Assembly: GCA_965178125.1 (NCBI GenBank) | Contig: OZ237738.1 | Span: 496,001-560,000 of the forward strand | Reading direction: 5' to 3' | DNA: 64,000 nucleotides | From: Bilabrum cf. latius | Taxonomy: Eukaryota | Part shown: one piece after another, positions 1 through 64,000 of the stretch | How the letters are laid out: each line of letters starts with the position of its first letter | How positions within the stretch are numbered: position 1 is the stretch's first letter | Made by a program: the position numbers and the translations under genes | The notes under the pieces: model-generated | Told to the model about the DNA's origin: nothing | Seen by the model: only the letters and a program-made list of their open reading frames with translations | The model's database searches: none

Positions 1-2
1 GA

Positions 3-3000
3 TCCAAGAGCATCTCAAACCGCGTGCTTCTCATGGCCGGCCTCGCGAGTGGGACGACGCGGATCACCGGTCTGCTGCAGTCGGACGACACGCAGGCTAT
101 GATGGGTGCCCTCACTGCCGTCGGGGCCAAGATGCGGTGGGAGCTAGGGGAGGGCGGAGGCCCCGTGCTAGTGGTGACCGGCACTGCGGGCGCGCTCTCG
201 GCTCCGTCGAAGCCCCTCCTATTCATCAAGAACGCGGGAACCGCTAGCCGTTTCCTCACCACCGCCTTGTGCCTGCTGCCGGCTCTTGAAGGTGACGGCG
301 TGGTGCTCGACGGCAACTCGAGGATGCGCAAGCGGCCGGCTGGACCACTGGTTGACGCGCTCCACAGGCAAGGATGCGAGCTGGCCTACGAGCCTATCGA
401 AGGAGAGAAGGGGCCTCCCAGCGAGCGGCGGGCGCTGCCGCTGCGCTTCCGAGGGGGTGGTCTGCCCGGCGGCAGGATCGAGCTGGCGGCCAAGGTGAGC
501 TCGCAGTACGTCTCATCCATCTTGCTCTCTGCGCCGTACGCCAAAGAACCCGTCGAGCTCGTGCTTGACGAGGAAAAACCCACTTCGCTGCCTTACATCG
601 AAATGACCACGGCGATGATGAAGCAGTTTGGCGTCGAGGTGGAGCAGCTGGCTCCAAACCACTACAGGATCCCGAGCGGCTGCTACTCGTTTGCCGGAGG
701 CGACGGATCCAAAGTGTTTGAGGTGGAGGCAGACGCATCGTCGGCGACCTACCCTGCAGCCTTCGCGGCGGTGACAGGGAGTGCCGTTCTTCTGCAGGGG
801 ATTGGCAGCCGCAGCGTGCAGGGAGACGCAGAGTTCTCCATGCTGCTCAAGCGCATGGGCTGCAAGGTGCACCGAACCCACTCCACGACCACCGTGATTG
901 GGCCCCCTCCGCGACCGCTAGTGCTGGACACTGCAGCCGGCGCATCTGCAGATGACGGCTTGATCGGACTGGGCAGCGTCGACATGAGCACCCAGACAGA
1001 CGCCTTCCTGACCATGGCGGCAGTCGCAGCGCACTCAGCTGGCGAGACGCACATCTTCAACATCGAGAACCAGCGAGTCAAGGAGTGCAACAGGATCCAG
1101 GCAATGCACGATGAGCTTGCCAAGTGCGGGGCTAGGACGGAGACTCGCCAGGACGGTATCCTCATCGCGGGAGCCGTCGCGGGCGAGGGGCTGCAAGGCG
1201 CCAGGATCCACTGCTATGACGATCACAGGGTTGCGATGGCCATGGCGGTATTCGGCGCTGGCCTCCTCGCCAGGCGCAGGGCCGCGAGCGGGCTGCTTAG
1301 TGCTGCACCCGTGTGCCCGATCGTGCTGGACGACCCTCTCTGCGTGGAAAAGACGTATCCCGAGTTCTGGGACCACCTGGAGACCATCCTCGGCGTGGAC
1401 GTCTCGGCAGCCGATGCAGGCGCGCTGTCCCCAGGTAGTGTCGCGGAGGTCCTGCACGCCAGGCTCGCGGGGACGCAGGGTTCTCGAACCGGCGGCTCCA
1501 CCCAGCCTGCTGCCCCGGGCCTGGCGGATCTTGCACCGAGGAATCTGCTGCAAGCGAAGCCGCGACAGCTGATCAACGCCTCCCTCGCACGACCCTTCAT
1601 GTCTGCGGTAGTCATTGGGATGCGGGGCGCGGGAAAATCGACACTCGCCCGAGCTGCAGCCGCTGGCCTGGGGCGCCCGTGGCGGCACATCGACCTGGAC
1701 GAGGTCCTCGTGAACGAGGAAGGCCGCACGGTCCAAGAAATCGTCGCGGAAGTAGGCTGGCCTGGGTTCAGGGCGAAGGAGGTCGACGTGCTTCTGGACT
1801 GCCTCTCCAGCGATGACCTATCCCAGCATTGCGTCATCTCGTGCGGCGGCGGAATCGTCGAGTCGCCCGTTGCGCGAGCTCTCCTCAGGGCGTACGCGCA
1901 GGGCGGTGCCGCGTCAGTGCGAAAGCTGGGGATCGAGTCGGGCTTGGTTCGGAAGAGTGCGGACGGCTCCGCGGCCTCGATCATCGCGAGCATGGATCCG
2001 AGGGACGTCCTGGCTCCGGAGCTCGAGCAGCTGGGGCCCCGTGCCGCTGGCAGCGGCCAGGCTCATGCTATCGTGTGCGTGACTCGCGCCATCGCCGACA
2101 TCGAAGCGGACTTGGGATTGGCCACAGACAGGCAGGCAGCGGTACGAGCGGCGCAGGCAGGAGGTTTGGTGCAGTCGGGGGGCAGCGGTGCTGCGGACGA
2201 GCAGCGCCCAGGCTACTCTGGAGGGGAGGGGTTGAGGGATGTGTACCGAAGGCGCCAGCCGCTCTTCTTCGAGACTTCGTCTCACTCTTTCGTGATCCGT
2301 GCCGGCGACAGCGACTGGGGTGCGATCTCTAGCGATTTCGTGGCGGCGGTGTCCGGGGCGCAGGGCCTCGATCTCGCCAGAGGGCAGCAGGGGAGCGGCC
2401 TCACGCTGGGTGCCGAGGTGCACGAAACCTTGCTGCTGGATTCTGCTGGCGCGGGAGGGCGCGATGCCGACGAGAATCTGCTCGCTATGCACGCGATTGA
2501 TCGCAGACACAGGTGCGTGTGGGACGCGCACTTTGCTGCCAAGCAGGCAGGCACGTTTTTCGTGTCTCTCACCCTGCCTGACGTGCACTATTGCGCGCCT
2601 CGATCGAGCGCTCATGGCGTGTCTCAGCAGCAACAAGACTAGCCCAAGCAAGTGGTGGTTGGGGTGCCCTCTGAGCTCGATGAGAGCGGGGCTGCAGTTG
2701 CCTCCGAGCCCGACGTTGCGCGGGGCCTGCGCGGCATTTCGGCAGGAGCAGACTCGATCGAGCTTCGGGTGGACCTGCTGGACGCGTGCGCCCGTGCCTG
2801 CGACATGGAGGCACATCTAAAGACGCAGCGATCAGCCCGGGACGCGGCGTATGGCGCTCTCGTCTCAGTCTCATACGCGCTCGGTTGCTAGGTAGCCGCG
2901 ATTCGTCGGCACGCAGGCCTTCCCATTGTATGGACGGTCCGCACAGCGGCCGAAGGCGGCAAGTTCACTGGTTCGCATGACCTGGCTGGCATGCTCATGC

Positions 3001-6000
3001 TGCTGGGTCTTCGTCTTGGGTGCGAGCTGGTGGACGTGGAGCACGGGCTGCCTGCCTTTGTGCGGCGGTGCGTCGGTCTCGCGGCTCGCTCGCGGGCGGT
3101 GCTGCTTCAGACACAATCGCTCTCGCGCGCCATTGGACCGACACCGGCCGCCAGCAACGTGCCGCCACCTCTGCCGAAATCGATTGCAGTTAGCGAGCTC
3201 CTGCCGTTGATGGCCTGGTCCTCGCCCACCATCATCTGGTCGAAACACTTTCCCGAGGCGCCCCAGCCCGCACAGTCGTACCTGCAGGAGTGCTTCGCTG
3301 CCATGCGCCAGGAGTCGATCGCTCTAGACCCGCTCGCCAAGGCAGGCCTGCGGGTCGGCTGCAAGGACGTCATCAAGATCGTGACGAGGGCCCAGGCACC
3401 TGCCGATGTGCATGCGGTGAGGAGTGCCAGCCTTGCTGATGCGCGAGCGGAGGCGCGGGACTGCCGCGACCAAGTTGCGAAGCTTGGTGCTGCTTCGCAA
3501 GGATCGACGGGACCAGCTGGTGCGAGCCATAGGGGTGCAGTAGACGTTGAGCGAGCCTTCCGGTTGCCCGGACTATGGGCCGTCCCTGTGTCTGCGTCCA
3601 CGAGGATCGTGCTGGCGATGGGCGACGAGGGCAAGCTCTCGAGGGTCTTGAACGAGTGCATGACGCCGTGCACTTCACCCCTCCTGCCGGGCGCAGCAGC
3701 TCCCGGCTAGCTGTCAGTTGCGCAGGTGCAGCGCCTGAGGGCCTCTCAGGGGCTTGTGAGGCCGCTGAAACTCGCTCTCTTCGGTCACCCCATCGGCAAG
3801 TCTCCGTCGCCGATCATGCACAACACGTCCTTCGCAGCGATGGCGCTGCCTCACGAGTACCTGCTGTCTAGCACGGAGGACCAGTCGATGGTGCGGGCCT
3901 CGCTGGAAGGAAGGATGAACGGCGGCGGGTCAGTCACTATGCCGCTCAAGATCACCACCATGCCGTGGATGGCTGGTCTGGCACCTGCTGCACGAGCCAT
4001 CGGAGCTCTGAACACCATTGTGAGGACGGACAGTGCCGACGCTGACCTGCGCCACTCCGGCATCGTGAATGTGCTGGAGCCCAAGAGGCAAGGCGAGGCA
4101 AGCGGCACAAGTGCGGTGCCGTTTTTCGGCTACAACACGGACTGGCTCGGCATTGCGATTCCCGTCTCGGCGGCGCTTCGTTGCCGGGACTAGGCCCTGG
4201 TCCAGTCTAGTGCGGCGGCTGGATCTGCTGCAGCGCCAATCGCCGGCGATTCGCGAGGATGCATTGTGCTAGGCGCTGGCGGCACCGCCAGGGCAGCTCT
4301 CTTTGCAGCCCGACAGCTTGGGCTCACGCTGTTCGTCTGGAACAGAACGGCGGCGAAGGCAGAGGCACTGGCTACCGAGGTGGGAGCCACCGCTGTGCCT
4401 ACTCTAGCCGAGTCCGCGACCCTGATGAAATCTGCTGGCTGTTCCCTGGACCTGATCCTGTGCACGGTCCCACCAGCTGCGTAGCTGACCGTGCCAGAGG
4501 CCCTGCTTCAGTCGAAGCCGGTCGTGCTAGATGCAGCCTACCTGCCAAGGACGACCGCACTGACTGCTCAGGCAGAAGCGGCGGGATGCCCGACCGTGCG
4601 AGGCATTCAGATGCTGATTGCGCAGGGCATCGCGCAGTCGGCGCTTTGGACTGGAAAGCAGCCGCCCTCTGGCAAGATCATGCAGTCGGTCCTTCGGTAC
4701 TACGATGCCGTGTCTCGCACTCTTCCGGGCGGTCAGGGGGCGATTGGCGCCGCAGCGGTTTCCAGTGCAGCTGCAGAGGTGCAACGAATCGATACCGAGA
4801 TCCAACGCATGGTGCAGGTGCGGACAGAGCTTCTGCAGCGGGCCGCCGAGGCGTCTGTGATCGACACTACGGGAGCAGCTGATGGTGGCCAGCAATCGGG
4901 AGGCACTCGCGCCGGGCAGCTGTTGGCCGCCCAACGGGATGCGCTTCCAGGACCCGTCCCGTCGTCTGCCATGCGAGTGGTCCTGGAGTCTGTTGACGCG
5001 GCGTGTGCCGTGGGCAGGCCGCACGCGAGCAGCCGAACCAAGAAGATTGCTTTCTGTGGCAGCGTTGGCTCCTTTGCTCACGCCGCCGCCATTCGCCTCA
5101 ACGCGTCGTCTGGGATGGGCGCTCGGCTGATCCCCTGCCTGACGGTACAGGATGTGTTCGCTCAGGTGCAGACCGGGAAGGTGGACGGCGGCGTCGCGCT
5201 GATCGAGTCCAGTCGGGAAGGCGTTGATCACCAGGCTCTGCGATGCCTCGTGTCAGCCAGCAATTCTGACGGCGTGGTTCAGGTGCTAGGCGCCAAGCAA
5301 GCGACAGCTGCTGCTGGTGAATCTGCCGCCGCCAAAGGTGAGTCCACCCTGTCTGCAACGGGTGCGGATTTCACCATTGACGTTGCAATCGTTCGAGAGA
5401 CGTTTGTGGCGCTCGACGAGGCACTGTGCAAGCCGAGAGGGATGGGTGGGTTGCGGTCTGCCACCAGAGTGATCGGCACGGGCCCCGCACTGCGTCGCTT
5501 CGTGCCCTACCTGCGGGTGGCCTGCTCCCGCGAGTGCAGCTTTCAGGTCGTGGAGAAGTCCGTGCAAGCAGCCGAGACGGCCAGCAGGCTTGCCCAGCAG
5601 GGCGAGCAGGCCTTGGCACTGGCACCACCGGCAGCAGCAGCCCAGTTCGGGCTGGAGATCGTGGCTCGCGGCGCGGAAATGGATAGGGAAGGACCCAGGG
5701 CCGAGCTGCTCACCGGCAGCGGGGGCGCCGGTGGGTCTGCGGGCTCTGGATCCTCTTCTATCCCAGCCATCGAGGACGTAGCGTCAGCCCTGCCAAGCAC
5801 CCACTTGTCGCCGCGGAGCTCGGTAGGACGGTACGTGCTGCTGACCAAGACTTCCATCGCCGAGCAGCTGCTGGTTTCCAGCACGGCCGGATCAGCGGGT
5901 GCCAGCAGCGGGAGCGCGCCTGCTGCCGACGGCATGCCGTCTGCTGCCGATGGCGTTGTAGTCCCGGCGCCTCGCCGAGCCAGCCTCGTGATCTCGCTTG

Positions 6001-6296
6001 CTGATCGCAAGGGCGCACTCGGCGATGTGCTCAGTACCATGGCCCAGCACGGCATCAACCTCACAAAGCTGGAGTCTTTCCCGGCTGGAGACGCGAGGGC
6101 GTACCTGTCTGCTGCATCGCCGGGGACTGGTGCGGAGTCTGCCGGTCTGCACAGGCCAGTGTTCCGTTTCTTCGTGGAGGCCCACGTGGATGAGAGCCCA
6201 GAGCCGCTGATGCGGGCTGCGCGGGAGCTGCGGAGCGGTGGGGCGCGTGTCAGGATCGTCGGGATCTACGACTGCGGTGCCCCTGCGACGACGTGA
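3..6296 (+). CDS. ARO1: AROM polyprotein (5'-partial): EPSP synthase, shikimate kinase, type I DHQase, shikimate dehydrogenase, plus C-terminal chorismate mutase-like/prephenate dehydratase-like/ACT extension
   Basis: One frame from SKSISNRVLL. Motifs: EPSPS (NAGTASRF, SSQYVSS, NQRVKECNRI, DDHRVAM, KTYPEFW); kinase P-loop GMRGAGKS; DHQase GADSIELRVDLL, LPIVWTVRT, AAPG*LS; SDH GHPIGKSPSP, SVTMPLK, GYNTDWLG, GAGGTARAA. Five in-frame TAGs (2640, 2889, 3708, 4191, 4482); ends TGA 6294-6296. Confidence 0.92.
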
Positions 6297-6465
6297 GATG
6301 GGATTGATCTTCGCTCGGTGCGTAGGTGGCACCTATTTTCTATTCAAACGAATACGCATGCTTCTGGCTTTCTTCAAACAAGCACAAGCTCAAAATCACC
6401 CTATCAGCCAACGTCGAGACGAACGGTGCCGCAGCAAGCCAACACGCCCAAGGCGAATTCAAGCA

Positions 6466-7645
6466 TTACGTTTGCTCATGGGCAGCAGCCGCTGCCGCTC
6501 CCCCCGTCGCTGGCCCGCTGGCTGCCCCTGCCCCGTCCCTGGACAGCGCGGCCACATCCTGAGGCCTCCCCACGAAATCGTCCATGGTGGAGTTCGTCCC
6601 GAACAGGTTGATGCAGAAATCGAAGGCGGCGGTTGGAATGATGCCACGGAGCATGGGCGAGAGGCCCACTGTCAGCGGCATGTAGACCACGGACTCCCGG
6701 CCGAGCACCGCCTTGACGATCCGGTCGGCGGCCCACTCCGCTTTCAAGATGGGCAGCAGGAGAGGGAAGCGCGTGGAAGCTCCCTCGAACATGCCGGTGT
6801 CGATGAAGAAAGGACAGATGCAGGACGTAGACACACCGGAGGCGCCCTTGCGCTGCAGCTCCATGCGGAGGCTCTCGTCGAAGCCAACCGCTGCCCACTT
6901 GGACGCGCTGTAGTCGCACTGCTTCGCGACTCCCGTGGTGCCCGCAGCCGAGGCGATCGTGATGACCTGACCGTGGTTTCTTTCCAGCATACCTGGCAAG
7001 AACGAGCGCACCGTCCAGAAATGAGAAATCACATTCACTTGGAACGTCCTAACGATCGCGCGAGGGTCCGCCTCCAGCAGCTCCTTGCCCTGCACAACTC
7101 CAGCGTTGTTGATCAAAATGTCAACGTCACCGGCTTCTTTTGCCTGCGAAGTAGGGTCAGGGCCAGATTAGAACGCCAATATAGACACGCGTCCACCAAA
7201 GTTGTACGGCAGATCGACCGCCGGCTATTTGTTTGGCCTACATTCGGCTGGGTCATATCATTTTGCTCACGGTTGCTTCCACCGTCTCCCTATTTGTTAC
7301 ATCTACTAGTGCAGTGCGGACTGTCTGCTTCGGTAGGTCGGGATCCTGCTCAGAGCTGGCAATATCAGCCTCAATTTCGGACTTGAGCTTGCCGAGAGCC
7401 TCTCCAGATCTCGGCAGGTCCCACAAGACCAGGGATGCCCCCAGCTTGGCAAACTTTCTTGCCATGAGTGCCCCGATTCCAGACGCTGCTCCGGTGATTA
7501 GGACGGTTTCTCCGTCCAATCTGGCACGCGTTGACAAGCTACTCAAAATGGATCGAGCTGCTGCCACCCCTCCAATGGCCAAAGCTACCTTTGCCCATCC
7601 AGGAAGCTTTGAAACACGCTTGATAGCTTCATTTACAACGTCCAT
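6466..7645 (-). CDS. Short-chain dehydrogenase/reductase (retinol dehydrogenase/17-beta-HSD11-like), 2 exons
   Basis: TGAASGIG, NNAG and YSASK motifs. Intron 7144-7270 (GTGAGC...CTGAC...CGCAG) joins VEAT|AKEAGDVDILINNAG. Ends TAA. Start ATG inferred. Confidence 0.85.
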
Positions 7646-7762
7646 GGCGTACTTGTGAGCCCCAGAACCAGAATTTGTGGCCGAGGGCGTCCACAGTTCA
7701 GTCGACGATCGCAATGGTTCCGCACTTGTGCGCGGCGCCACGACGATCCGTACGCACAGAAA

Positions 7763-9283
7763 ATGGCCCAGGTAGCCGAGTCTCTTGGGCCAACGTTGAA
7801 GCCAGACGCACCATGTGCAGATGAACTAGAGGCACAGCGCCGGCGATGGCTCGAACTGTCCGCAAAGAAAACTGCTGCCATGGCAAAAGTCGAGCCGCCG
7901 CCGAAGCACTTTCCTGACTCATTCAAAGCCCAAGTGCTGGCTGATGAGTCGTACATCGACCCGAGTGTTTTTAATTCAGATAAAATATAGCATAAGCTTG
8001 CTCGTGACGGCTATGTGGCAATCAAAGGACTGTTCAGCCCCGCCGAAGTGGAATTGATGCGCACCAGGATCCACGAAATAGTAGAGGCGTGGCCAGACAA
8101 ATCGCCAGCATCGTGTTTTGCAGACTCAGAATCAACGGTTACACCGCTGGTGGATTGGGCCGCTGACAAAGTGCTTGCCAGCGGAGAAAAGAGAGTTGAC
8201 GGCGTTCGACGGCTTTTCCGCGTTTGCTTGCACGACGACTCGTTCCGATCGGTGTGCAAGGATAAGCGACTGACAGCCCCGCTGCAGAGGCTGTGGTCCA
8301 GTGCAGAAACTCGCGGGGAAACCGCTGGTGCTGGGACCGAAGGTGAGGCGGGGGTCGCGCTCCTGCAGTCCATGTGTCTGCTCAAGCCTCCTGGCACGGG
8401 CGAGAAGAGGTGGCACGCAGACCAAGCGTACTTCCGCCTGCGACCGTCTCGCGTGTTCGCATACTGGATTGCATTGGATGATACCAACGAGCAGAACGGC
8501 TGCATGTTCGTGCAGCCTGGCTCCCACCAGCGAGGCCTCGTCCCCCACGGCAACCCAACTCCCGAGACGCACGTGCATTACTCGGTGCGGGACCCCTTTG
8601 TGCCCCCTGCGGCTCCCGAGGGCAGCGCTGCCACGACTGACGGCAAGGCTCCTGAAGACCCGCCCCCGCTGCCCCCCATGGACAAACTCGAGGCACCTGA
8701 AGACTCGTCCAGTGGGGAGAGCTCCTCCCTGAACCCCTTCGGGCCGCCGGTCGCAGTCCCCATGCGCGCAGGCGATGCTCTCCTCTTCCACGGAGACCTG
8801 ATCCACGGCACCCCCGCCAACCGGACGAAAGACAAGCGGCGCAGGGCGCTGCAGCTTCACTACGCATGGGCGGGCTGCGTGCCCTCCTCTTGTTCCCCGG
8901 GCGAGGAAGGCCCCTCCGAGGACGAGATGCAGCCCGGGGCAGTGCTGCTTGCTCCCAATGAAGTCACAGGGCCCGACAAGAAGGCAGCGGGATCGGAGTC
9001 GAAGGGTGGAGAGCCTTCAAGCTCTAGTGGCGAGGCGGCATGGGAGGAAAAGCGCGGCGCGGGGGAAGAATTGCCGGCCGGTGGCGCTGCATCTGCCAGC
9101 GGAAGGGCACGGTTGGACGATGACGCGAAGGCTTCTGATTCGCCGGCCATCGACGGCGCGGGCCCGCTGGCTGGGGCGGGGCGTTTTGCAGCCTGCATCG
9201 AGTCGCAGCACTGGTACTACCGCCGTGCCGAACTGCTTGCTGCAGGGTCTGGGGGTGGACCCGGCAGCTTGTGGCCGGCATGA
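7763..9283 (+). CDS. Phytanoyl-CoA dioxygenase (PhyH)-family Fe(II)/2-oxoglutarate dioxygenase
   Basis: DGYVAIKGLFS, KPPG, WHAD, WIALDD, NGCM...PGSH, HGTPANRT...RRAL motifs. One in-frame TAG at 7988; ends TGA. Start inferred. Confidence 0.85.
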
Positions 9284-9461
9284 CGATCCAGTTTGGTTTG
9301 AGTTGATCTCCGCGTGAGCTGGCAGCAGCCCTGTACAATCATTGTGGAAATAAGAACGACTGAGTCAGACTCGCAGAAATAGTTTTGTAGCACAAGCATT
9401 TGCACGCCCCAGGTTGGCTGGCGCGACACACCAGCAGCACGCAACCGGCAACGCGTTAAGA

Positions 9462-12400
9462 TCAAGCGCTCCGCAGTCCGAACAGGTAGGACCCAGACTT
9501 CGTCTGGAACTCTACATACTCGGTCGATGCCACCGCGCCCACGATTCCATCCGTCGGGGTGAACTTCCCGTCCGACCACACCACGTTCCCGCTCTCCTCG
9601 ATCGTCGCGCTCCCCGCAGATTGCCCCAGCAGCGGCACCCAGATCGCACCCAGAGCGCTCACGGGAATCGTAGCATGCAGCGAGAGCGCCTTCCCACCCT
9701 GCCCCGAGGCGTCCCAAGAGGACACCGCGTTGCCGCGCGGTGTGGAGACCTTCGCCGTCACGTTGGTGGGCCCGGCCTTGGTGGACACGCGAGGCTGCAC
9801 GATCACCGTGCTGTACCCGTCGCCGCCGGGCAGGATGCCGCCGAGGGCCTTGTACAGCCACTCGCTCGCCGCACCGGCCAGGAAGATGTGGTTGTGCGTC
9901 GGTGCAGGCGGATGCGTAGCGTCAGCGTAACCGGACCAGTCTTCCCATGCCGTGGTGGCACCCAGCGAGATCCAGTGCCCGTACGACGGGAACGTCCGCT
10001 GCAGCATCATGCCCAGAGCCTGCTCGTGGTAACCGCGGGATGACAGCTGCCACATGGTGTGCTGCACGCCCACGGAGCCGTACGTCAAGTGGCCGTCTTG
10101 CGCCTGCACGTTGGCCACCAGCCCTTCCGCAAGAGCAGCCTGGTCCTTGGCCGACACAACCCCGGACACCGACAGCACGGCCGATGTGACCGACTGCACC
10201 TCCAGGTCGGTCTTGCCGAAGAGGTTGGTGGTCTTGTTGCGGTAGTTGGGGTCGAACTGAGGCAGCAGCTCATCGGCCAGCTGCTTGTATCTCTGCGCGT
10301 CTGCCTCCTCGCCGATCGCGCCGGCCATCTCGATCATGGCCTCGAGTCCTCCAAGGTAGTTCTGGGCGGCCAAAACTCCCCCCGTGTTGGGAGTGGCGAT
10401 AGCACGGGACTCCACGGCGCACCAGCTGCGATGGGACACAAAATTGCTTGGAAAACCACGGCAACGCATCTATGCAATGTTGTAGGCCTTGCAAGTAGGC
10501 CGCGTACTATCTGTATGACGGGCAAGGCATCGCTTTGCTGGCTGGTCTCACTCTCCCCACTGAAAGAAGTTCGGAATGTTGCCGGGTGCGCTTTGGTTCT
10601 TGGCCTCTTCATAGAGCCCATCCATGTATGCCTTGAGGCTGCTCCAGTGCTCGCGGGCCGGGGTGTCGTCCCCGTAGAACTTCAGCATGTGTCGCGTGAT
10701 GATCGGGTACGCAATCGTCCAGGAGATGTCGTTGCGGGGCGAACGACCAGACACGCTGCTCTGCATGGGACCTTGAGGGACCACTGCAGCAACGTCTCCG
10801 GTGGGGACCTGCGTGTCCTGGATGGTCTTGAGGAAGCGCCTGTACACTGGGATCATGTTGAAGTTGTAGAAGGCGCCCCTCGACGAAGTCACGGCATCAC
10901 CTGCGAGGAGAGTATTGAAATTCAAGGCACACATAACGCTGCGGCGAATCTGTGTGGCGGGGCTGTACGGCTTGCAGTAGGTGTCGCTTTGCAAGCTTCT
11001 GTCGTTGAATCTCACCCAACCTGCGAAAGAAGAGGAAAGCAAACAAGTACTCAATGAAGCACTAGCTCGACACTAAAATGCGGCACAGACATGAGCTGGG
11101 GTGTCACATCGTCTCAACCTGCTCACCATCCGTGCTTCTCCCTTGTGGGGCAGTCCGTTGGCATGTACCCGGCGTTGTTGCTGTTGTAGCCGCGCACCGT
11201 CAGGTCCTGGATCTTGCGGAGCAGCTCGTCGTCACCGTTGTTGCCCCCGCTGAACTCTACGTTTCCAGTCTTGTCCAGCGCGTTGTTCAGCGTCAGCCCG
11301 GTCACCTCGATCTCGTCAAAGTTCGTCATGCCATCGCTCGTGATCTCGCAGTACTGGAACCCGTGCCACGTAAAGCGTGGAGTCACCGTGGCGATCTTTC
11401 CGTCGAACGTGTGGCGATCCGTCTGCTTCGTCTCGTCCCAGGGGAAGGACACGCTCCCGTTGGGGAACAGCACCTCACCATGCTTCATGACGAGGGAGGA
11501 GCCAGCGGGAGGCGCGCTCTTGAAGTGGACCTCAACGATGCCCACGAAATTGACGGGGAAGTTGAAGCGCACGCGGTTGGTGCCCAGCTTGGTCACGTTC
11601 GTAGTAGGGATCCGGTCCGTCACTTTGGACAGGGGCATGGCCAGCGCACCCGATTTGCCCGACGGGATCTGCTTTCGCGTGGCCACCACCGGTGACCATG
11701 CGATGCCGCCGGACGGCTTGAAGCCCGCCTCCGACCAGCCCTCCTGTAGCCGGCGCCAGTCGGTGGTGGCACCATCGTACGGATCATCAGCCAGGATGTA
11801 TCCCTCTGTAGCCGACAGGGACAGCACCTCGGGCTGAGCAGACGTGGAGGGCCGGCAGGTCGAGTTGGCAGACACGTGCTTCTTGACCCCGTGGCACGGG
11901 TCAGGCACCGCCGCCGATCCGGGTACCACCACGCACTGGTCATCGTGACAGTGCGGCTACACCACGCACCTTTGCTGGCCCACGCATGCGCTCTCCACGA
12001 TCGACCGCACGCCTGGCGCGTCGCAGCTGGGGTTGGGCTTGAACGGACCGCTGGAGCATGACCCGGCGGGGGTGCCAAAGGACGCGAACGGCACCGATGC
12101 GATTTCCTGCCCTGCAGGGCACTGCAGCGCATCAATCTCGCCCTCTTCCAGACTCACGCACGTCTTGGGACCCTCTGACGGCACGCCAGACACGAAGATC
12201 GTGCGAGCGCCGGTCGAGTCCTCCGCCACGATCGTCACGCGCACCGTCTTGCTGCCCGCGAAGCGAGAGAGCCACCAGCCGGATCCTAGCAGCACGCCAA
12301 ACCCGTTCTGCCCATCCACCACCAGGGTCGTGATGTCGTGCGCCTGCCACAGGACTGTCCGATCGAACTACAGCCACGGCATCACGCCGTGCTGCTGCGA

Positions 12401-12979
12401 CGGGACGATCACATCGGCGTCCTCGCTCACCGATTGCACCTCCATACCATTCACAAACACGCTGAATCCACCAGGTCCAGACACGTACGCCATCACGCGC
12501 CGCTAGGATCCCTTTAGCGCGAAGTCGGCCCGTACCTGACTCTCGTTGCCAGACGGACCCTCCACCCACGTGGAGCCGAACCAGTCGGCCTCATCCATAA
12601 TCCCAACAGAAAAATTACCGCCAGATACGGCAGAAGCTTCCCCGCCGCCGGCCGTCCATTGCACGGTCCAGGAGTACTTGGTATGCGCAGCCAATTCCGA
12701 TCCATTGTAAACAGCCCACGTCTGATCGCTTTCAATGGCATGATTCCACACGGTCTTGCCTGAAAACGTTTCTTGTACTGTGATGGACATGCCAGACTAG
12801 CCCAGGCCGCGGGAGCACTCTTGGAAATAGTTGCCACAGTCGATCTTGTACGAGAATCTGGGGCTGCCATGGTCGATCACGGGCGAACCAGAGAGGCCAT
12901 CAACTTGAAGAGAGGTTGGCGGGGGCAAAGCAGCAAATGCAATGCCACAGCATAGACTAAGCGCTGAAAGGCAGCGCAT
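9462..12979 (-). CDS. Secreted GH78 alpha-L-rhamnosidase with inserted SUEL/rhamnose-binding lectin domain, 4 exons
   Basis: Signal peptide; PRFTWHGFQY, PTDCPTREKHGWLGDA (after splicing), WGDWC, GATTAWEDW, HNHIFL. Introns 11021-11126, 10901-11015, 10426-10551. TAGs at 12797, 12503, 12368, 11957; ends TGA. Confidence 0.88.
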
Positions 12980-13155
12980 GGCAGATCAAACGTGCTACGC
13001 GTCGATGTTCGTGCATATGCGCATATGCTCTGAAATGGCTCGCTACTGGCTGACTAAGTCGGATTTCTAACGGCATCGACATGGCGACGGTGAACTCTTT
13101 AAGGCTTGGCACTCAAGCCCACGACAATAAGCTGCTGCTCTTTGCGCTGCACAAG

Positions 13156-15496: not shown

Positions 15497-15898
15497 ATCC
15501 GCTGGCGTTTGGGGGATAAGTGGCAGATACTTGTTGAACCGCGAACGAGTGGGAGGAGCAATCATGTGGCCGAAATGTGCTCCGGCGGCGGTCTTTGATG
15601 ATGTGATTCCTGGCACGCCAAACCTTGAGTGCAAGCATTATGATAACCACGAGTGCTGCGCAATTAGACTGGATTAGTGTCCCGTCAGCGCTCGGAGAAG
15701 GTTAGCGTGGACTTGAGACTATACCGCCAGTGGCAGCTAGGCCGACCAAGCGATGCGCTTACCTGGAATCTGACTACATCCATACACGCACGTGCCGAAG
15801 TATTCCGCCGACTTCAGTAGCCGAACTTGCGTCCCAAATAGAGAGTCCCCGCGCGTTGCGACCTGGTTGGGCTGACCTTGGTCCGAAGGCACGCTCAG

Positions 15899-18097: not shown

Positions 18098-18282
18098 GGT
18101 GGCAATTGGGTACTCGGAGATCGCAGCGCTAGTCTGTTGATTGTGTTTGAATCCTCGAATCGACAAACCAAAGCGTGCCTCACCGAGTCGCCGATCGGAG
18201 CTCAGCCCCGGCAAAGCAATGCTTCGGCAGCCATGACTGGAATGCATCCACCCGTCTCCTGAACAAAAACCGCGTGCATGGC

Positions 18283-21413: not shown

Positions 21414-21593
21414 GGTGGCAATTGGTTTCTCGGAGATCGCAGCGCTATTGATTGTGCTTGGATCCACAAATCGACAAAAACGTGCCTCACCGAATCGCCG
21501 ATCGGAGCTCAGCCCCGGCAAACCAATGCTTCGGCGGCCATGACTGGAATGCATCCATCCGTATCCTGAACACCACCCGGGTGCATGAAAGAG

Positions 21594-35200: not shown

Positions 35201-35412
35201 GAATCGATGGGCGCGTCAAGATTCGTCTAGGGTGGGGCCCGGGGGAGGGGCAATCCGAACGCGGTCAAGGCCTAGATTGGCGCCATCGAAACGCGCCTCT
35301 TCACAAATTTAGCTCACCGTACGTCAATGCCGGTGATAGTCATTCGAGTGTGTGCATCCTGCGCGACCGCAGTCGCTGCAAGGAACGCGACGACCGAAGC
35401 CGTCGTGTGCAT
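23271..35412 (-). CDS. Fibrocystin-L/PKHD1L1-like giant type I membrane protein (~4004 aa): signal peptide, IPT/TIG repeats, PA14-like, two G8 domains, beta-helix repeats, one TM helix
   Basis: Four same-frame ORFs joined by five TAGs (33813, 28440, 28236, 27795, 27645). First exon MHTTASVVAFLAATAVAQ; intron 35191-35317. Many PxxGSxxGGTxVTITGxGF motifs; G8 (WAGNEPPVEGDTVIIPEGQAVLLD); TM IGAGLIAGAVVGGLVVVGLVLVGLFFVY; ends TGA. Confidence 0.9.
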
Positions 35413-45749: not shown

Positions 45750-45878
45750 GTGCCGCCTCGCGCGCGTGGACGGACGTGCAGGATTGCGGACGTGTCGGCT
45801 CGCGCGATAACGTGCCATTTACCTTTAGGCCGTGATATACTGTGTTCGTTTTGGCCACTTGGATCCACCTTCTGCAGA

Positions 45879-48800: not shown

Positions 48801-49145
48801 CCTTTGCTTCCTGCCGAGGCCAGGGAGCTGGCAGCCCGGTCGCACAAGCAACACTGTTCAGATGGTGCGCTTATGGAGCGGGATGGATTCACAAAGTTGG
48901 ACTTGGACCAAGGCATCGGGGTGCCCGAAGATCTGCCCCTCGTCTTCGAGATGGATGTGTCGCTCCCAGGGAACTTGCGCACTACGGTGTAGGTGCCTGT
49001 GTGCAAGGCAGAGGGCAGAGCTGTGCGGGCTACATGCGATGCTAATGTCCCTGCCCCTACGTATGTGGACGAGCCGGCACCAGCTGTGCAGTTCGAGCTG
49101 CTTGGGGCAACATCGTGCAGCTTTGCGGTAGATTGGGTGTGCTGA
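45879..49145 (+). CDS. Second GH78 alpha-L-rhamnosidase (~1088 aa, no intron seen)
   Basis: Signal-like N-terminus; PRFSW, GLGY, LDPAWTTY, PQFTFHAFRH, SDCPGRERLGYGGD, GATTTLEHW, SWNHAW. TAGs at 46083, 46416, 48990; ends TGA 49143-49145. Confidence 0.88.
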
Positions 49146-56666: not shown

Positions 56667-59600
56667 ATGGAGCGAACAAGGTCCGAACGCGACAGAGACT
56701 TACTAAATAGTGCGTCTAGTATGGTAAAATCTTTAGCTGGGGACCTGGCAGGAGCACTTGGTGAGGATCCACTTGCTTTGTTTCCTTTTACTTCCAGCTC
56801 AGTGAGTTGCTATTGTGGCAAAGTCAGCCTCGTGGTATTTCAATGGTCTCGCAGAAGATTCGTTGGAGCCGCGCGATGGTGCAAAAGCCGCTGCTTCAAG
56901 TCCTGGACACATTGCACTACTTCAACTTGCTGGATCTGAACGAATGGACCCAGGCTAGGACAGTGACACTACCAAACTGCCGGGGAACGAGGTATAGAAC
57001 AAGGTAACTGCATCCGGCGAGTAGCGTGTAGACAGGCTGCTCGCTGAAGCCAGTCAGATTATCTGCGACGGGGCCGTGGTGCGGTCCGAGCATTCGAGCG
57101 AAGACTTGCAGTCGATTCATTCCCCCAGACTTGCTTCAAGCGGCAGCTCACCGTCCTACACGTACACAGTCAGAGGTCCGGGCGCAGAGCAGCCCCATAG
57201 TCTGCACCTAGTCAGGAAGGGGTCGCTCGAGTCGCCCACGACCTCTCGAGTGCTGGCCGCGGCGGTGGCAGGCAGGTCAGGCCCAGCACACTCTGAGCCA
57301 CTGACCGCAGATGATGCGGTACTACGCATGAGGATGCTGCGGTCAAATGCCGTGCGAGCGGCTCTTGCGGGGGTGAGTGTGGACCAGGCGAGGGTGATTC
57401 CACTGTCCGTGCTGGACCGCTTGCGGAAGCTGGAAGACGATCGCGCGAGCCTGGTGAGCAGTTTGCAGAACGTGATGGAGCTGTACAGACTGTCAGCAAG
57501 GGGTACGAGCGGGGCATCGGGTATGGCGTCGCCGAGACAAGAGCACGGGGGAAATTCGGAACGGAGCGTTGCACTACCTGCAGGCATGTCGAGCGCCTCG
57601 AGTTCAAGTTCGGGTGTGGCTCCAGTAGACGGCGGCGGTGCTGCCGGCATGTCGCTTGTTCCATCCAAGGTTAGCGATACCAATCATCGAGGCGCGGACC
57701 AGACAGCACTTGACCTGTCTGACGATGTGTCGTCCACTCTGGCGGGCGGCGACAGGGACCTTGACGTGCTGCTGCGGCGAGACTGGGACGTTACTGAGCT
57801 GGAGGGCCCGGAAGTTGCGGCCATCATCAGCAGGCTGCGAAGGGCACTTCGCCAAGCCCTCGCTGAGAAATCGTTTGCGATGCAGCGGCTCGCTCAGGAG
57901 CGCAAAGCACTCATGGGCAGCATCAGCCAGCTGCGAGCCAGCCTCAAGGTCATTCAGTCTCGTCTGGCTTCCGGTGGAGGTGCACCAACAGTCGCGCATG
58001 GCGACGGGGGCGGGGCGTCTTCCGCCCTCGTGGCAATTGCTCATGAGGGCACAAGTGCTGATGCAGCAGCAGCCCCTGCCGCCCTCGGACTAGCCCGACG
58101 GGCTTCGTTCAACGCTGACCGAGCGATGCGTGTCGCGCAGTAGGCCCTCGCAGTGACGGCAGAAGTTGCGTAGGACTCAACTGCTCGGGTAGACTCACCC
58201 GACAATGAGGAAGTCGAAAGCAAGCGGCCGCAGCGCCTGGCGTCGGTCGCCATGTCGAGTCGACTGGCTGCGACGGCATCATCTCTCGAGCTGAGGCGGG
58301 AGCGAGAGGCTCTGCTGCAGTACGTGAGGTCGCTTGAGGACGAGCGAGCTGACGCGGTGAGCGAATCCAAGTAGCTTAGAGCTGATCTAGCGCAAGTCAC
58401 GGAACAGGCGACATCGCTGCACTCTGCATGCACTGACATGCGCAAGGCTCTGTCAGAAACGGTGGCTGACCTCGGCAAGAAGCAGCAGACTGTCGTGCAA
58501 CTTCGGGGTTCGCTTTAGGCATCCACGGCCGCGTTGGAGCAAGCGCATGCTCGATATAACGAGCTGTATCAAGAGAGTAATTCTTTGCAGAGGGACTTGC
58601 GCGCAAAGCTCTCAGATGTCAAGAAGGTGTCCGATGCATTTAGGCACCGTCACGGAGCCCTCGCAGATCGATTGTCAGCAAAAGAAGTCGAGTGCCAGCG
58701 CTTGCAAAGCCTGTTGGAGGATGCCAACCGCGGCAAAGTTGCGCAGCAGCACGATGCCGAGCAGGCCCACCAGACGGCCGTGGCGAGGATCGCCAGGCTG
58801 GCGGGCCAGGTTGAGAGCCTTCGGAAGGAATTGGACGAGGCAAGGCAAACGCCGCCAGAGTTGCCCAAAGTCAGAGCCGAACTTGAATCTCAGGTGCAGC
58901 GCACCGCGCACGTCGAGCAACGGGAGGAGGAATTGAGGCAGCAGCTCAATTCCAGCAAGAAGGACGAAATGCAGGTGCGTGAGAGGCTTGGGTCTCTTGA
59001 GTCTCGCCTCGAAGCATCAAAGTCAGAAGTGGAGAAGCTGGAGGCGAAACTTTCGGAGTAGAGACAGGCCACGGGTAGCACTCGCGAGGAGATGGAAGTG
59101 CGGCTGAAGCAGACGAGGGAGCAGCTAGAAGAGAAGCTAGCTGAGCTTGGTGCCTCCGACAGGAAGGTGAAAGGGTTGGAAGATAAGCTCGAGCTTGAGT
59201 CGAGTGCTTGCGAAACGCTCAAGCAGGAGATGGAGCTGGCTCGGTAGCGATCGAAGGACGAGGTGGCCCGCGTTGCAGCAAGGAAAGAGGCTGAAATTGC
59301 TCGTATCACCAAGGCAAAGGACGATTTGCAGCGCAGGTTCGATCAGGAGTCGGAAGAGCTCCGGGGTCAGCTGCACAAAGAGTCGATGAGAAAACATTCG
59401 ATTGAGTCGGTGACTCGCAGTCTGCAGGCAGAGCGGGATTCGGCAAGGCGCAGACTCAGAGAGTTAGACGGCTAGATCGAGGCTTAGAGAGAAGAAGCGG
59501 AATCTGCACGCAAGTAGCTGCAGAAGGCTACTCAGGAAGTAGCCAGTCTGCGGCGAGATCTCGAGGCAGCTCAAGACACCGTTTCGTAGCGGGAGCGGGA

Positions 59601-61455
59601 GTTATCTTCTGCCCACGAAGCCATCGCAAGCAAGCACAGGGAGGTAGAAGCGGCACAGCGGACGGTCAAGTCAGCAGGTGAAGAGTCTGTCTCAGCCGTT
59701 GAGCTCGCCAAAGACTAGGCCAAGAAGCTCTCGGACGAGCTGGTGGCATCTAGAGCGGAGAACCAAGTGTTGCTGGGCAGACTCGAAGGCATGGAAGCAT
59801 CCAAGAAGCAAGCGCAAGCCGATGCGTAGTAGGCACTGCAGCGAGTCTCTGAGGTGGATTTGTTGAGAAAGCGCACAGAAGACAAGTTGGCACAGCTGTT
59901 GGAGCAGCTAGCGGATGCTAGCCGGCAGTAGAAAGACAACGAACACAGCTTGTCGCGTGCCCAATAGCACGCATCAGCGCTCGAAACCCAGCTTGCAGAG
60001 AAGGATGAGGCGCTCCTTGCATCTTCAGACCGAGCAGAAAAGCTAGCTGCTTCGCTGTCTCGGGCAGAAGCTGACTCGAAGGCTTTTCGCGAGCAGTTGG
60101 ACTCGTTGGAGAGTCCAGATGCACGAATCGCGAAGCTGCAAGAGGACAATCGCGTTCTTGAGTCGGAATTATAGAGCGCGAGGGACTATCTGACAACCGC
60201 AGAGCGTGACCTGCAAGAGTCGAACAAGGAAGTTGATGCCTTGCGCTCGCAGCTGGACGGCTAGAAACGAGCAGTTCAGGATGGTCTTGTCCTGCGCGGT
60301 CGCTTCGAGCAGTCTCTCAAGGTGGCGACCCGCGCGAAGAAGGAGGCTTAGGAGCAGCTCGAAATGAGCAGCAAGCAGCTTGTCGAGAAAAATGCTGCCC
60401 TTGAGCGATCGCGCGCCGAACTTCGCGCACTTTAGGACCAGGTAAGGGGTGCTGACGACGCGGAAGGCAGAATTGAGGCGATACGGGGCGCCTTGGAATC
60501 CAGGTCGAACGCCTTGCGGACGGGAGTCGCGGTGCTGGCGCCTGAACTCCGTTCTATCAAGCGAGAACATGAACAGCTCAAAGAGAGTTTGTTGCGAGCC
60601 ACGTAGGCCGCTGAAGAGAGCGTGCAGCAGAAAGGAAAGCAGCTCGTTGCCAGAGTGGCTGCTGCCCTAGCTGATCGTCAGGAGAAGCATAGTGCCGCGC
60701 AGAAGGCATAGGCGGAGCAGATGGAGCAGCACCGCAAGCAGCTTCAAGATGCCAAAGGATAGGTGGAGCAGCTGAAGCGTGAGCTTGAACATGCAAAGCA
60801 GATCGCTCCTCCATCGCTGCCTGCGTCACGTGCACCGTCCGATGCTGACAAGCAGCGACGAGAGAAAGCAAGGAAACGGAAGGAAGAGCTGCGCAAGCGA
60901 CAGCTGGCACTGCAGGAAGAAGTTTCCAAAGCCAAGGCTCAGGTAGACCGACAGAGAGAATTAAAAGCACGCGGTGCGAGTGCCTTCTTGGATGGACTCA
61001 TCCCCCCGAGTCCTACCGCTGCTGCGAGTCCCACACCCAGCGGCGGCGGGCGGTCCCGTCGCAGCCGAAGGCTAACTATGAAGGCCTCTGCGCACGGTCA
61101 CGGTCTCACGCAAGGGACCGCGTTTGCGAAGGATGGTAGTAGCAGAGCAGGTGATGGCAGCTCTTTGGGAAGCGGTGGCCTCACTCCATCCATTGCTTCG
61201 ACGCCGGCTGGTGCCCGGTCACCCGGTCGCCTTGGTGCCTCGGCAGCCGATGGGGGCGATGCACACACAGTATCGGGAACGGGCGCTCGTTGGGGCCGGC
61301 TTCGTTCGTGGGTGAGTCAGGCTAGCATTGAAGAGCTCCACGATGTTGCTAAAGGTGAGCTTGGTCAGAGCGCTGCTTCTGAAGCGCACGACTGGGCCCT
61401 TCCCGCGAGTTCAACCGCTGAAACTCGGGACGGCGACAGCCAAGAAGAGTCTTGA
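56667..61455 (+). CDS. Long coiled-coil protein of unknown family (~1564 aa, 2 exons)
   Basis: E/Q/R/L/A-rich heptads in one frame with very many TAGs. Putative 94-nt intron 56761-56854 (GTGAGG...CGCAG); ends TGA. Confidence 0.7.
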
Positions 61456-61547
61456 CGATAAATGTTCTATCAGATCTACACTGGGTTTTGCCGCAGCAAT
61501 AATCACTATAATCATTGGATACGTCCTGCAACAGGCCTCAATTCTAC

Positions 61548-64000
61548 TTATCTACCTCCGTGCTTCTTACGTCGTGACAAGAGCTATGCCGCCCGGCCAA
61601 CAATGTAGGGTGATCCACCTGAATCTCTGCTGCCTCTACTGCCTTCCTCGTGGGAAGGTGGACAGACAGCCTCGTCAGATCCGGCCCCGATCCCAGCCTT
61701 GGCCCCTTTTGCACCATCTCCGGCATCTTCTTGGATCGTACCGAGCGAGAGGGGAGCTCGCGTCTTGACTCGCAATCCTGCACCCCGCACCGACAGCGGT
61801 ACCTCAAGCCTCTCTTCCCCCTGCTCACCTTCTCTCGCCACTTCAGCCTGCCTTGCTGCCCCAGATCCAGCAGTCCTTGCTCGCGGCGGCGTGCCTTGTC
61901 CTCTCTTGCGTTGAACTAGTACCTGTGCAGCAGAGCGCCGTGGACTGCCCTCAGGGGGGTCCGCAGGAGGCTAAATATAATCGAAATCGTCAGAAGCGTC
62001 CGAGCTGCCGCTCATTCCAGCAATAACAGCAGCAGGCAGGGGCTCACCATGAGCTGGGCGCCAAACTCCACTTTGCCTTTGACTGGCTCCCAACCTGCTG
62101 TCGAGCTTGCGCTACAAGCCCGGCGGGCCCGCGGGCGGTAGCCTTGCAGCAGCAACTGGCAGGTGCCCATCAGCCGGTGAATCTAGGCCACTTGCCCCAC
62201 CCCTCTCTCGACGTAAACTGAATTCCCACCGCGGTGGTGTCCTAGACCGAGGGCCCAACGCACTCGCGTCGATGCTGGACGTGGCACCTGCGTGGCCGAC
62301 AGGAGACTTCCATGGCCTTGTCGGCACTCTTAAGTTTGGAGAGGCAGCAGCATGCGGGGCGTAGTGACCTCGAACTGCTTGACCTCGGACCGCACCAGAG
62401 CCTGTGCTACTAAAGCTGTGCCTCGCTCCTCCCCTTGCTGAGTCGTGGGAGCCCTCCTCAGACGAGAGCGTCCTCTCCTCGAGCTTTTTATCGGCTACTG
62501 CCCGCGCCATTGCGGCTACTGTGGCCGTTGATGGCGGCACTGGTACCATACTGCGACTGGGCGACATTCTGGAGGCCGATTTCCGGAGACCTTTGTCGTA
62601 TTCTGTCGATGCATCTCTGCTAGGCGCCAGGAAGGAGCGGTTCTGCCTGCGCGGAGAGCTGCCAGGCAGCATCGTGCGTCGCCGTAGCTTATCTCCTCTT
62701 GAATTACCGAGCTGTGCTCCGTTGATGCCTGGAGGCATGGCTGCATGCATGACGCCCGCGGCCAGCATCTGCTTGGTCAGTGAACGAACACGCTCTCTCA
62801 GGCGAGCTTTGTCCCGCTCTGACCGATCCAAGCGTCTCTTCAAGCGACTATTCACATCTGCAAGCTGCTTCTGCCGCTGCTTGTACTACCCGAGGAGCTT
62901 GGTTACCTCACTGAGATCCTGTACCGATGGCTGCTGCCGTTGTGAAGAAGAGAAAGCGGCATCCACATCACTTCTATCAGGAGGAGCAATGGCACTCGAC
63001 CTTTGTGCAGCGAGGTCCAAAGCTCCGCCATCACCAGCAGCTTTCACTGTCGACAACACGGCCAATGCATCGCCCCTTGAGTTGTCAGCAGGCAGATCGG
63101 CATGAGTCGCAAGGTGTCGTGGCCCATCGCTGGAGAAACCGAGCAGCTTTGCTAGTCTTTCTCGTTTTGCTGCATCCGCTGCTTCTGCACGCATTGCTGT
63201 GAGCTCTGCACGAGCTTGAGCGGCATCCTCACGTGCTGCAAAAAGGGCTGCGTTCGTTTCGTCCAACTCATTGCGATCCGCATCTCGAGATGCCACGATT
63301 GCCTCCTTCTTTGCCTCTGCTGCAACGGCTGCGGCCTTGTGCTGTAAGGCCACCCGGAAAAGCATATGCTGCAGTGGATCGGAAGGCTCGAATGCGTCTC
63401 CAGTATGCCTTGCACTCGCACCTGCAGCGGCGCCATCGGCAGGCACGTCTTGTGGGTGCAGGGCGCGGGCAAGTGCCTCTTCCTGAAAGTCATATCGTGC
63501 TCTAGCTCCTTCGATGGATTCTTGCAGCTGCACCTTAGCCGCATACAAATCATCCGCGCTGAAAGAAATACAGAGCTGCTGGTACCGGTGGTCATCGGCT
63601 TGCTATGGGGCTCCACTGTTTTCTTCTACCAGCTACGCGAGTAACTCATCCAGGCGGTCTGCACGGTCTGCTACCGTTTCATCGTTGTCAGAAGCAGACC
63701 CTGGACCGCATTCTTCCGATGTACCACCGCTGCTGCCAGCAATGAGTGCGCCAGAAACAAGCTGCAATTTTGCAGTCATCAATTGGAGCCTTTGCCTTGC
63801 TTCGGCTCTCTCGTTTCGAAGCTCTGCGATTTCATGAGTTGACTGTGCGTTGGCGAGGTGCTTGTCAATGGAGGCTTCAATGGCATGCTCCTACTCATGG
63901 GCCTCCAACCGTGCAATGTCGCTTCCCCCCGATGCGGTCTTGATCTCTGCGTCGATATGCGCACTGGATACGCCCGTGATGGTATCCCAACGACTGATTG
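61548..64000 (-). CDS. Coiled-coil/low-complexity protein, 5'-partial
   Basis: One frame from the window edge to TAA 61548, interrupted only by TAG; coiled-coil stretches such as RLKRRLDRSERDKARLRERVRSL. Confidence 0.65.

Follow-up and report, generated by a model that had tools for sequence, protein, structure and literature searches.

A GC-rich nuclear genome that very probably reads UAG as glutamine and keeps UAA and UGA as stop codons

Introduction

In nuclear genetic codes, UAG and UAA nearly always change their meaning together. Here we analyze a stretch of 64,000 nucleotides of DNA, called the window throughout, whose genes are interrupted again and again by in-frame TAG but not by TAA or TGA, and we compare it with the few described systems in which the two codons have parted. 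In the accessible text of a 2024 survey, UAG and UAA have separate meanings in only a handful of nuclear lineages, and reassignment of UAG alone to glutamine is recorded for Iotanema spirale, Protocruzia tuzeti and two lineages of phyllopharyngean ciliates (PMC11687900). The account of UAG-only codes in a preliminary description of the window, made from its letters only, agrees with that text. Other decoupled codes give UAG a different meaning, namely leucine in the rhizarian exLh, serine in Scotinosphaera and glutamate in Oligohymenophorea sp. PL0344, in which UAA encodes lysine (PMC11687900, PMC10553269; both as far as their accessible text goes). Joint reassignment of UAA and UAG to glutamine (UAR=Gln, NCBI table 6) is more widespread and is reported in the same part of the survey for many ciliates, Dasycladales and other Ulvophyceae, hexamitin diplomonads, Streblomastix and Amoeboaphelidium (PMC11687900). 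For Iotanema, the available text also describes a T32G exchange in the GTS motif of the release factor eRF1 (PMC5304391).

We consider it highly probable that UAG is a minor glutamine codon in the compact, GC-rich and intron-bearing protist nuclear genome from which the window derives and that only UAA and UGA terminate its genes, as in NCBI table 15. This reading, already put forward in the preliminary description, is drawn from the agreement of homolog alignment columns, codon exchanges between orthologs, codon counts and RNA contigs.

Results

Reading frames that continue across TAG

Pfam and PDB searches together with modelling of open reading frames (ORFs) identified 16 eukaryotic genes with short GT..AG introns in the window (Table 1). 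In-frame TAG codons occur in 14 of them, the short-chain dehydrogenase/reductase (SDR) and NUDIX hydrolase genes being those without, and no model contains an internal TAA or TGA. All 16 models end in TGA (13) or TAA (3), and none ends in TAG. Gene number, TAG distribution and terminators thus match the preliminary description, as do the TAG positions quoted in it (2889-2891, 3708-3710, 12797, 15276 and 37178-37183). When TAG is read as a sense codon, frames of 2,097, 1,588, 2,264, 1,546, 3,982 and 816 codons result, while under table 11 the same genes fall into pieces, with fragments of at most 879 residues for the AROM gene. Conserved domains lie beyond the TAG codons: SDH_C, PDT and ACT follow the last TAG of the AROM gene, the catalytic GH78 domain follows all four TAGs of the alpha-L-rhamnosidase gene GH78a, and the conserved C-terminal motif of the second such gene, GH78b, is located downstream of TAG 48990.

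Across 15 modelled genes with 18,439 codons, we counted 94 TAG, 576 CAG and 152 CAA codons in frame, but neither TAA nor TGA, and TAG accounts for 11.4% of the glutamine-type codons. In the 209 codons of the NUDIX ORF, TAG, TAA and TGA are all absent. In the other two frames of the same DNA, 36,878 triplets include 213 TAG, 84 TAA and 743 TGA, a density of off-frame stops at which chance could not produce ORFs of 1,500-4,000 codons. The TAG share of glutamine codons was not significantly correlated with the G+C content at third codon positions (GC3; Spearman coefficient -0.41, p=0.12, 16 rows). The base following TAG was distributed as after CAG (chi-square p=0.29), and no special read-through context was seen among the in-frame TAGs.

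TAG codons in spliced RNA contigs

Positions 1-20000 were compared with contigs from four public sequencing runs of three studies, X1 from one study and X5, X6 and X7 from the two others. X1 behaves as DNA, with a single contig covering 1-15973 without any difference at a flat depth of 29.7. The listed contigs of X5, X6 and X7, by contrast, start and stop at gene borders, their depth changes stepwise from gene to gene (14.8, 82, 156, 50 and 51 in X5), and the three runs contain minus-strand GT..AG joints at 7142/7270, 10425/10552, 14466/14568, 14587/14736, 14800/14904, 15078/15176, 15333/15420 and 17873/17968, none of which is present in X1. Because of these spliced joints and the gene-wise depth, we regard X5, X6 and X7 as RNA.

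No run shows a differing letter over positions 1-15979. X5 contigs that are identical to the window extend over 923-6368 with the five AROM TAGs, over 7783-9348 with the TAG of the PhyH-family gene, which is also covered by contigs of X6 and X7, and, after splicing, over 9372-12991 with the four GH78a TAGs. Joining the sulfatase exons according to the RNA contigs yields a frame that is uninterrupted between Met and TGA only if TAG is a sense codon; the two TAGs in it are the sole stop triplets ahead of the TGA. Since the RNA contigs retain the TAGs without differing letters, UAG stands in the transcripts. CAG in place of TAG in mRNA, which the preliminary description had named as an observation that would speak against its reading, was seen at none of the AROM, PhyH, GH78a and sulfatase TAGs in the spliced contigs, although contigs, as opposed to raw reads, would lose rare variants.

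Termination at UAA and UGA

One alternative is a dual meaning of UAG, which would encode glutamine inside genes but, depending on context, terminate some of them, as it does in karyorelict ciliates and Blastocrithidia. A sample of 16 genes leaves some room for such ends, and two genes carry a TAG at most 12 codons ahead of the stop, at residue 722 of 728 in the second ankyrin-repeat gene (Ank2) and at residue 805 of 816 in the last gene of the window. However, none of the 16 genes needs a TAG terminator, as every frame continues to TGA or TAA, and the ankyrin-repeat paralogs Ank1 and Ank2 agree in their TGA stop and in the residues that follow the position of the late TAG. Moreover, in the five genes whose 3' ends are defined by RNA, the stop (TGA in four, TAA in one) lies 65-112 nt before the contig end. 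We therefore consider a dual meaning unlikely, though it has the best chance among the alternatives to UAG as a plain glutamine codon.

A code in which both UAA and UAG encode glutamine, with UAA simply being rare in a GC-rich genome, could appeal to the high GC3 of the genes (0.52-0.95) and to the fact that TAA is also the rarest of the three stop triplets off frame. The expected number of TAA codons can be estimated from the A/G ratios of related codon pairs (CAA/CAG 0.26, GAA/GAG 0.32, AAA/AAG 0.25, TTA/TTG 0.15), which predict 14-30 in-frame TAA if UAR meant glutamine. With none observed against 94 TAG, the probability of zero is about 1e-6 or less, and the preliminary description had treated TAA as common as TAG inside conserved domains as evidence against its proposal. 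Three genes end with TAA. For the SDR gene, homology to human HSD17B13 stops 51 residues ahead of the TAA, the transcript contigs end at 6356-6364, 102-112 nt past the TAA at 6466-6468, and read-through of the TAA would not meet another in-frame TGA until 216 nt downstream, outside of the RNA contig ends. For the coiled-coil gene P0002, no in-frame TGA follows within more than 600 nt after the TAA, and read-through would enter the signal peptide of the neighboring GH78b. Orthologous contigs from two environmental relatives, L001 and L002 (see below), have five TAG each and no TAA, with nine and five CAA, respectively. UAA is a real stop in these genes, and a joint UAR=Gln code has only a very small probability.

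UGA is likewise not a sense codon, as it is absent in frame versus 743 occurrences in the two other frames and ends 13 of the 16 genes. The sense use of UGA or UAA that characterizes codes without a dedicated stop, such as those of Condylostoma, Parduczia, Blastocrithidia and Amoebophrya, was not found in any of the modelled frames.

The residue encoded by UAG

Alignments to homologs were examined for the AROM protein (120 listed of 132 matches), the fibrocystin-L-like protein (the first 80 of 120 listed, out of 131 matches), GH78a and GH78b (11 of 18 matches) and the AN1 zinc-finger protein (150 listed of 2,063 matches). They contain 20 TAG columns, of which the 14 with at least 50% homolog occupancy were scored by summed log-odds in a manner similar to Codetta. 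Glutamine reached +12.4 nats, while all other residues were negative, the next being valine with -10.6. Glutamine is the plurality residue in six of these 14 columns. For the first 11 columns, the sums were +9.3 for glutamine and -6.3 for glutamate. As controls, the same scoring assigned 57 of 58 sense codons to their standard amino acid, sets of 11 columns drawn at random from those with CAA or CAG (CAR columns) scored 6.1 +/- 5.3, and random non-glutamine columns scored -13.6 +/- 5.1, the highest of 2,000 draws being 3.2. Ordinary CAR columns are similarly mixed, with glutamine as plurality residue in 42 of 188. As the score fits CAR sets and not non-glutamine sets, the TAG columns resemble glutamine columns, mismatches included.

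The most telling columns are those of conserved enzymes. In the dehydroquinase domain of the AROM protein, residue 963 (TAG 2889) is Q in 119 of the 120 matches listed and residue 1236 (TAG 3708) in all 120, and residue 63 of GH78a (TAG 12797) is Q in 10 of 10 aligned homologs; at all three sites the preliminary description had expected glutamine. At residue 206 of GH78a, the two closest of the aligned homologs have Q. The same expectation for the TAG pair of the AN1 protein holds for the first codon (residue 18, Q in 112 of the 150 matches listed and in three of three PDB homologs) but not for the second (residue 19, K31/L27/Q25/R25 of the 150 listed), and the sulfatase TAG at 15276, also quoted as an expected glutamine, is not diagnostic, with D, F and Q in the three alignments shown. 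Residue 2540 of the fibrocystin-L-like protein is Q in 34 of the 80 aligned matches. Besides AN1 residue 19, the columns at fibrocystin residues 484 and 2275 and GH78b residues 112 and 1081 are variable. The assignment to glutamine rests on homology and is to that extent a prediction.

Codon exchanges between close relatives point in the same direction. A scan of metagenome contigs with a segment of the fibrocystin-L-like protein yielded L001, with an ortholog 85.6% identical to the window protein, and L002, with one 65% identical; a scan of genome contigs with the same segment found no relative. The frames of L001 (1,687 codons) and L002 (1,281 codons) are open throughout only with TAG as a sense codon, and neither contains a TGA. 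Between the window and L001, eight aligned places have TAG on either side, and the partner codon is CAG in five, TAG in one, ATC in one and TGG in one. At fibrocystin residues 2343, 2490 and 2540, both relatives have CAG or TAG, except for GTG in L002 at residue 2540. Between the two ankyrin-repeat paralogs, TAG 17845 is opposite CAG and TAG 17794 opposite GAG, and there is one further TAG/GTG pair.

Reading of UAG as another amino acid (Glu, Leu, Trp, Tyr or Lys) or ambiguous decoding by near-cognate tRNAs could draw on the hydrophobic or aromatic character of several TAG columns and on the TAG that one relative has on a conserved Trp. Yet, the best rival residue scores 23 nats below glutamine, two TAGs fall on invariant glutamine columns of dehydroquinase and others on glutamine columns of GH78 and AN1, and the TAG/CAG exchanges occur in close orthologs. 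Such a reading is therefore about as improbable as the joint UAR code. That the TAGs are artefacts, stemming from pseudogenes, from misassembly or from DNA-RNA differences of the C-to-U type that editing corrects, can practically be dismissed, as no point in its favor was found, 14 unrelated genes are interrupted by TAG only and never by TAA or TGA, the same TAGs are present in DNA and spliced RNA contigs of four runs from three studies, and the contigs of two relatives show the same TAG use.

Phylogenetic position of the TAG-using genes

A tree of the fibrocystin-L-like protein (FastTree, LG+gamma, 1,127 columns, 81 sequences, Shimodaira-Hasegawa (SH)-like support), which represents one gene with few named tips, groups the window with L001 (support 1.0), then with L002 (1.0) and then with P0126 (0.955). 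This group is sister to a clade holding Cafeteria roenbergensis (SH-like support 0.996), which is also the best named fibrocystin match among the matches listed, with 51% identity. Cafeteria is also among the top AROM matches listed, and the matching protein P0007, with 2,473 residues, has ACT at its end like the AROM-PDT-ACT protein of the window. The partial AROM match P0006 from Rhabdomonas costata is uninformative with respect to placement. As a lead from these sequence comparisons, the organism may be a stramenopile near the bicosoecids. Because at least two environmental relatives share the use of UAG, the trait marks a lineage and extends beyond one assembly. P0126, the closest sequence outside of the TAG-using clade in the tree, was called as an unbroken protein of 3,778 residues, which hints at a lineage that may lack in-frame TAG.

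As a separate observation, the AN1 homolog P0264, which is 74% identical to the window protein, stops at residue 210, where the window protein continues, and its start lies 56 residues ahead of the conserved Met. A gene caller using the standard code may have cut the gene of a relative here at an in-frame TAG.

Genes and gene structures in the window

The window has a G+C content of 61.8% (0.57-0.69 across 4-kb bins), and the coordinates of all genes are compiled in Table 1. No Pfam match was obtained for P0002, P0004 and five further ORFs.

Table 1. Genes modelled in the window. Positions count from the first nucleotide of the window.
Gene or product	Position	Strand	In-frame TAG	Stop	Basis and remarks
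AROM-PDT-ACT (EPSP synthase, shikimate kinase, dehydroquinase, shikimate dehydrogenase, prephenate dehydratase, ACT)	3..6296	+	5: 2640, 2889, 3708, 4191, 4482 (translation)	TGA	Pfam; open 5' end
SDR, HSD17B11/13-like	6356..7668	-	none	TAA 6466-6468	two exons, intron ~7143-7269
PhyH-family dioxygenase	7763..9283	+	1: 7988	TGA	Pfam 1.4e-35
GH78a alpha-L-rhamnosidase	9462..12985	-	4: 12797, 12503, 12368, 11957	TGA	three exons, introns ~10426-10551 and ~10902-11124; Pfam and RNA joints
Sulfatase	13156..15700	-	2 in spliced coding sequence, one at 15276	TGA	six exons; Pfam, PDB, joints in X5-X7
Ank1, ankyrin-repeat gene 1	16159..18300	-	17845, 17794	TGA	Pfam
Ank2, ankyrin-repeat gene 2	19205..21508	-	1: 19223	TGA	
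Fibrocystin-L-like giant protein (TIG, G8, CEMIP beta-helix, C-terminal membrane anchor)	23271..35264	-	5: ORF residues 484, 2275, 2343, 2490, 2540	TGA	
AN1 zinc-finger protein, ZFAND1/Cuz1-like	36119..37234	-	TAG-TAG 37178-37183; 36881	TGA	Pfam, PDB
Gene of no known family	37405..40026	+	1 after first Met	TGA	low complexity, RG-rich
NUDIX hydrolase	40215..40844	-	none	TGA	Pfam NUDIX 8.1e-11
P0002, coiled coil	41001..45749	+	18	TAA 45747-45749	
GH78b alpha-L-rhamnosidase	45876..49145	+	46083, 46416, 48990	TGA	
P0003, Ion_trans channel with C2	49261..56055	-	17	TGA	
P0004, coiled coil	56944..61455	+	25	TGA	
Partial coiled-coil gene	61548..63998	-	7	TAA 61548-61550	weak rootletin-like match

The AROM protein is of the pentafunctional type and continues at its C-terminus into the prephenate dehydratase and ACT domains, all in a single polypeptide of more than 2,097 residues. 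Shikimate and phenylalanine synthesis may have been joined here by a fusion specific to this lineage. The SDR gene is supported by spliced RNA contigs in X5, X6 and X7 and by a PDB match with 1.1e-40. At GH78a, a TAG at position 10470 was dropped as a candidate in-frame codon, being intronic by the RNA joints. At the junction of intron 1 of the same gene (10901-11125), two letters in the contigs of three runs fit neither side, and splicing at the most evident GT..AG pair would break the frame. The reading frame of the sulfatase requires a micro-exon of 20 nt (14569-14588, minus strand), which is flanked by introns of about 100 and 148 nt and has joints in three RNA runs.

Spacing between genes is compact. 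The AROM and SDR genes are convergent, and their listed RNA contigs share about 12 nt (6356-6368). The 3' ends of the PhyH-family gene and GH78a are about 23 nt apart (9348-9372), and about 56 nt separate the 5' end of GH78a from the 3' end of the sulfatase gene (12991-13048). Positions 16000-21500 form a repeated region with the two ankyrin-repeat paralogs, whose products are identical at 561 of 637 aligned residues, and read depth there was raised and uneven in all runs. The 5' exon model of Ank1 is uncertain, with an intron at about 17874-17967 indicated by an RNA joint. In addition, a joint from 16102 to 18292 with 38 other letters in between is present in DNA and RNA runs and suggests further copies or a structural variant.

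No N-terminal exon of the fibrocystin-L-like gene was found in the window. Its GC3 is 0.95, with 1 CAA versus 125 CAG, compared with 0.52-0.83 in the neighboring genes and 0.76 in the ortholog of L001. In P0002, a 15-residue unit (RVDALQSEHEAELKQ) is repeated almost perfectly 16 times in tandem, and another unit occurs three times; TAG is absent from all of these repeats, hence they offer no comparison of TAG and CAG between copies.

Discussion

Several observations weigh against UAG as a glutamine codon and have to be set beside the evidence for it. In four cases, TAG meets a conserved hydrophobic or aromatic residue. Residue 161 of GH78a aligns to V/I/L in 11 of 11 homologs, residue 118 of the AN1 protein to F46/Y42 of the 150 listed, and fibrocystin residue 2490 to W21/I13/R10 of 80. 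In L001, residue 1023 is a TAG (TGG at residue 3143 of the window protein) in a column with Trp in 63 of 80 homologs, which may reflect a real exchange of W to Q, a sequence error in the contig or a hint of looser decoding. TAG is in excess in the first tenth of the gene models (18 of 94), and these N-terminal TAGs are probably in part located in 5' leaders, with several start codons being guesses. The zero counts of in-frame TAA and TGA are partly built in, as both triplets were used as ORF boundaries; independent evidence comes from frame length and transcript ends. Run X5 was flagged as "probably DNA" by the tool, its classification as RNA following from the joints and the depth steps, and all runs carry coded names of other organisms. 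With a sample of 16 genes, UAG may rarely terminate, and UAA may rarely be read as sense, elsewhere in the genome. Finally, the proposed code is deduced from nucleotide and protein comparisons.

UAG would most likely be decoded by a tRNA-Gln with the anticodon CUA, in analogy to the mechanism proposed for Iotanema. According to the accessible text of that study, CUA is the sole anticodon compatible with decoding of UAG and termination at UAA, as it pairs with UAG and not with UAA, and it is a single mutation away from that of tRNA-Gln(CUG) (PMC5304391). In parallel, eRF1 would have lost the recognition of UAG and retained that of UAA and UGA, again following the model in the available text for Iotanema (PMC5304391). 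ARAGORN detected no tRNA in the 64 kb, there was no Rfam match at gathering score, and eRF1 is not among the genes of the window. Because up to 25 UAGs occur per gene, decoding would need to be nearly complete; by simple arithmetic, 95% decoding per site over 25 UAGs gives about 28% full-length product.

We slightly favor the view that a clade of GC-rich, free-living stramenopile flagellates beside the bicosoecids, comprising this organism and at least two relatives, reassigned UAG alone to glutamine, that this is the first nuclear code change in stramenopiles and that its origin was independent of those in Iotanema and the ciliates. An independent origin had been suggested in the preliminary description and gains support from the tree position beside Cafeteria and the shared AROM/ACT fusion. 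A literature search for nuclear code changes in stramenopiles or bicosoecids, including UAG, returned none, with most subscription journals and supplements being outside of the search. The codon table as such is already known, and it appears that the lineage is new.

Each independent case tests which changes of tRNA-Gln and eRF1 suffice for reading UAG while UAA remains a stop, and a compact, GC-rich genome with UGA as main stop provides a new background compared with the AT-rich ciliates. With public DNA and RNA data, the tRNA and eRF1 changes behind the decoupling of UAG and UAA are directly readable, and if the lineage of P0126 uses the standard code, the switch would be bracketed on a short branch. 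In practical terms, most of the long genes in this organism and in its relatives will be split by standard gene callers, and annotation and metagenome binning therefore need table 15.

Among the described systems, Iotanema spirale (Fornicata) is similar to the window in that UAG alone was reassigned to glutamine and UAA and UGA are stops, and the accessible text on Iotanema describes the mechanism that we would expect here, a tRNA-Gln(CUA) that arose from the isoacceptor with CUG, combined with a change of eRF1 (PMC5304391). In contrast to the window, with UGA as main stop (13 of 16 genes) and 62% G+C, Iotanema belongs to the Metamonada, an unrelated supergroup, is represented by a transcriptome only and uses UAA as main stop (PMC5304391, same text). 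Protocruzia tuzeti and the two phyllopharyngean lineages likewise have UAG decoupled from UAA with the meaning glutamine, as far as the available text of the survey describes them (PMC11687900). However, they belong to the Alveolata, a group rich in code changes, whereas the window groups with Cafeteria, a stramenopile, in the fibrocystin tree. Codes of the table 6 type share UAG as glutamine, probably via a mutated tRNA-Gln, but in these UAA also means glutamine, whereas in the window UAA ends three of 16 genes and is never found in frame. The codes of exLh, Scotinosphaera and PL0344 resemble that of the window in giving UAG and UAA different meanings and differ in the amino acid, with Leu, Ser and Glu scoring far below Gln at the TAG columns analyzed here. 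Cafeteria roenbergensis, the nearest named relative for two gene families, is similar in being a GC-rich heterotrophic stramenopile, in its fibrocystin ortholog and in the terminal ACT domain of its AROM protein, but its deposited proteins of 4,214 and 2,473 residues were called in one piece with a standard-type code and hence have no in-frame stop.

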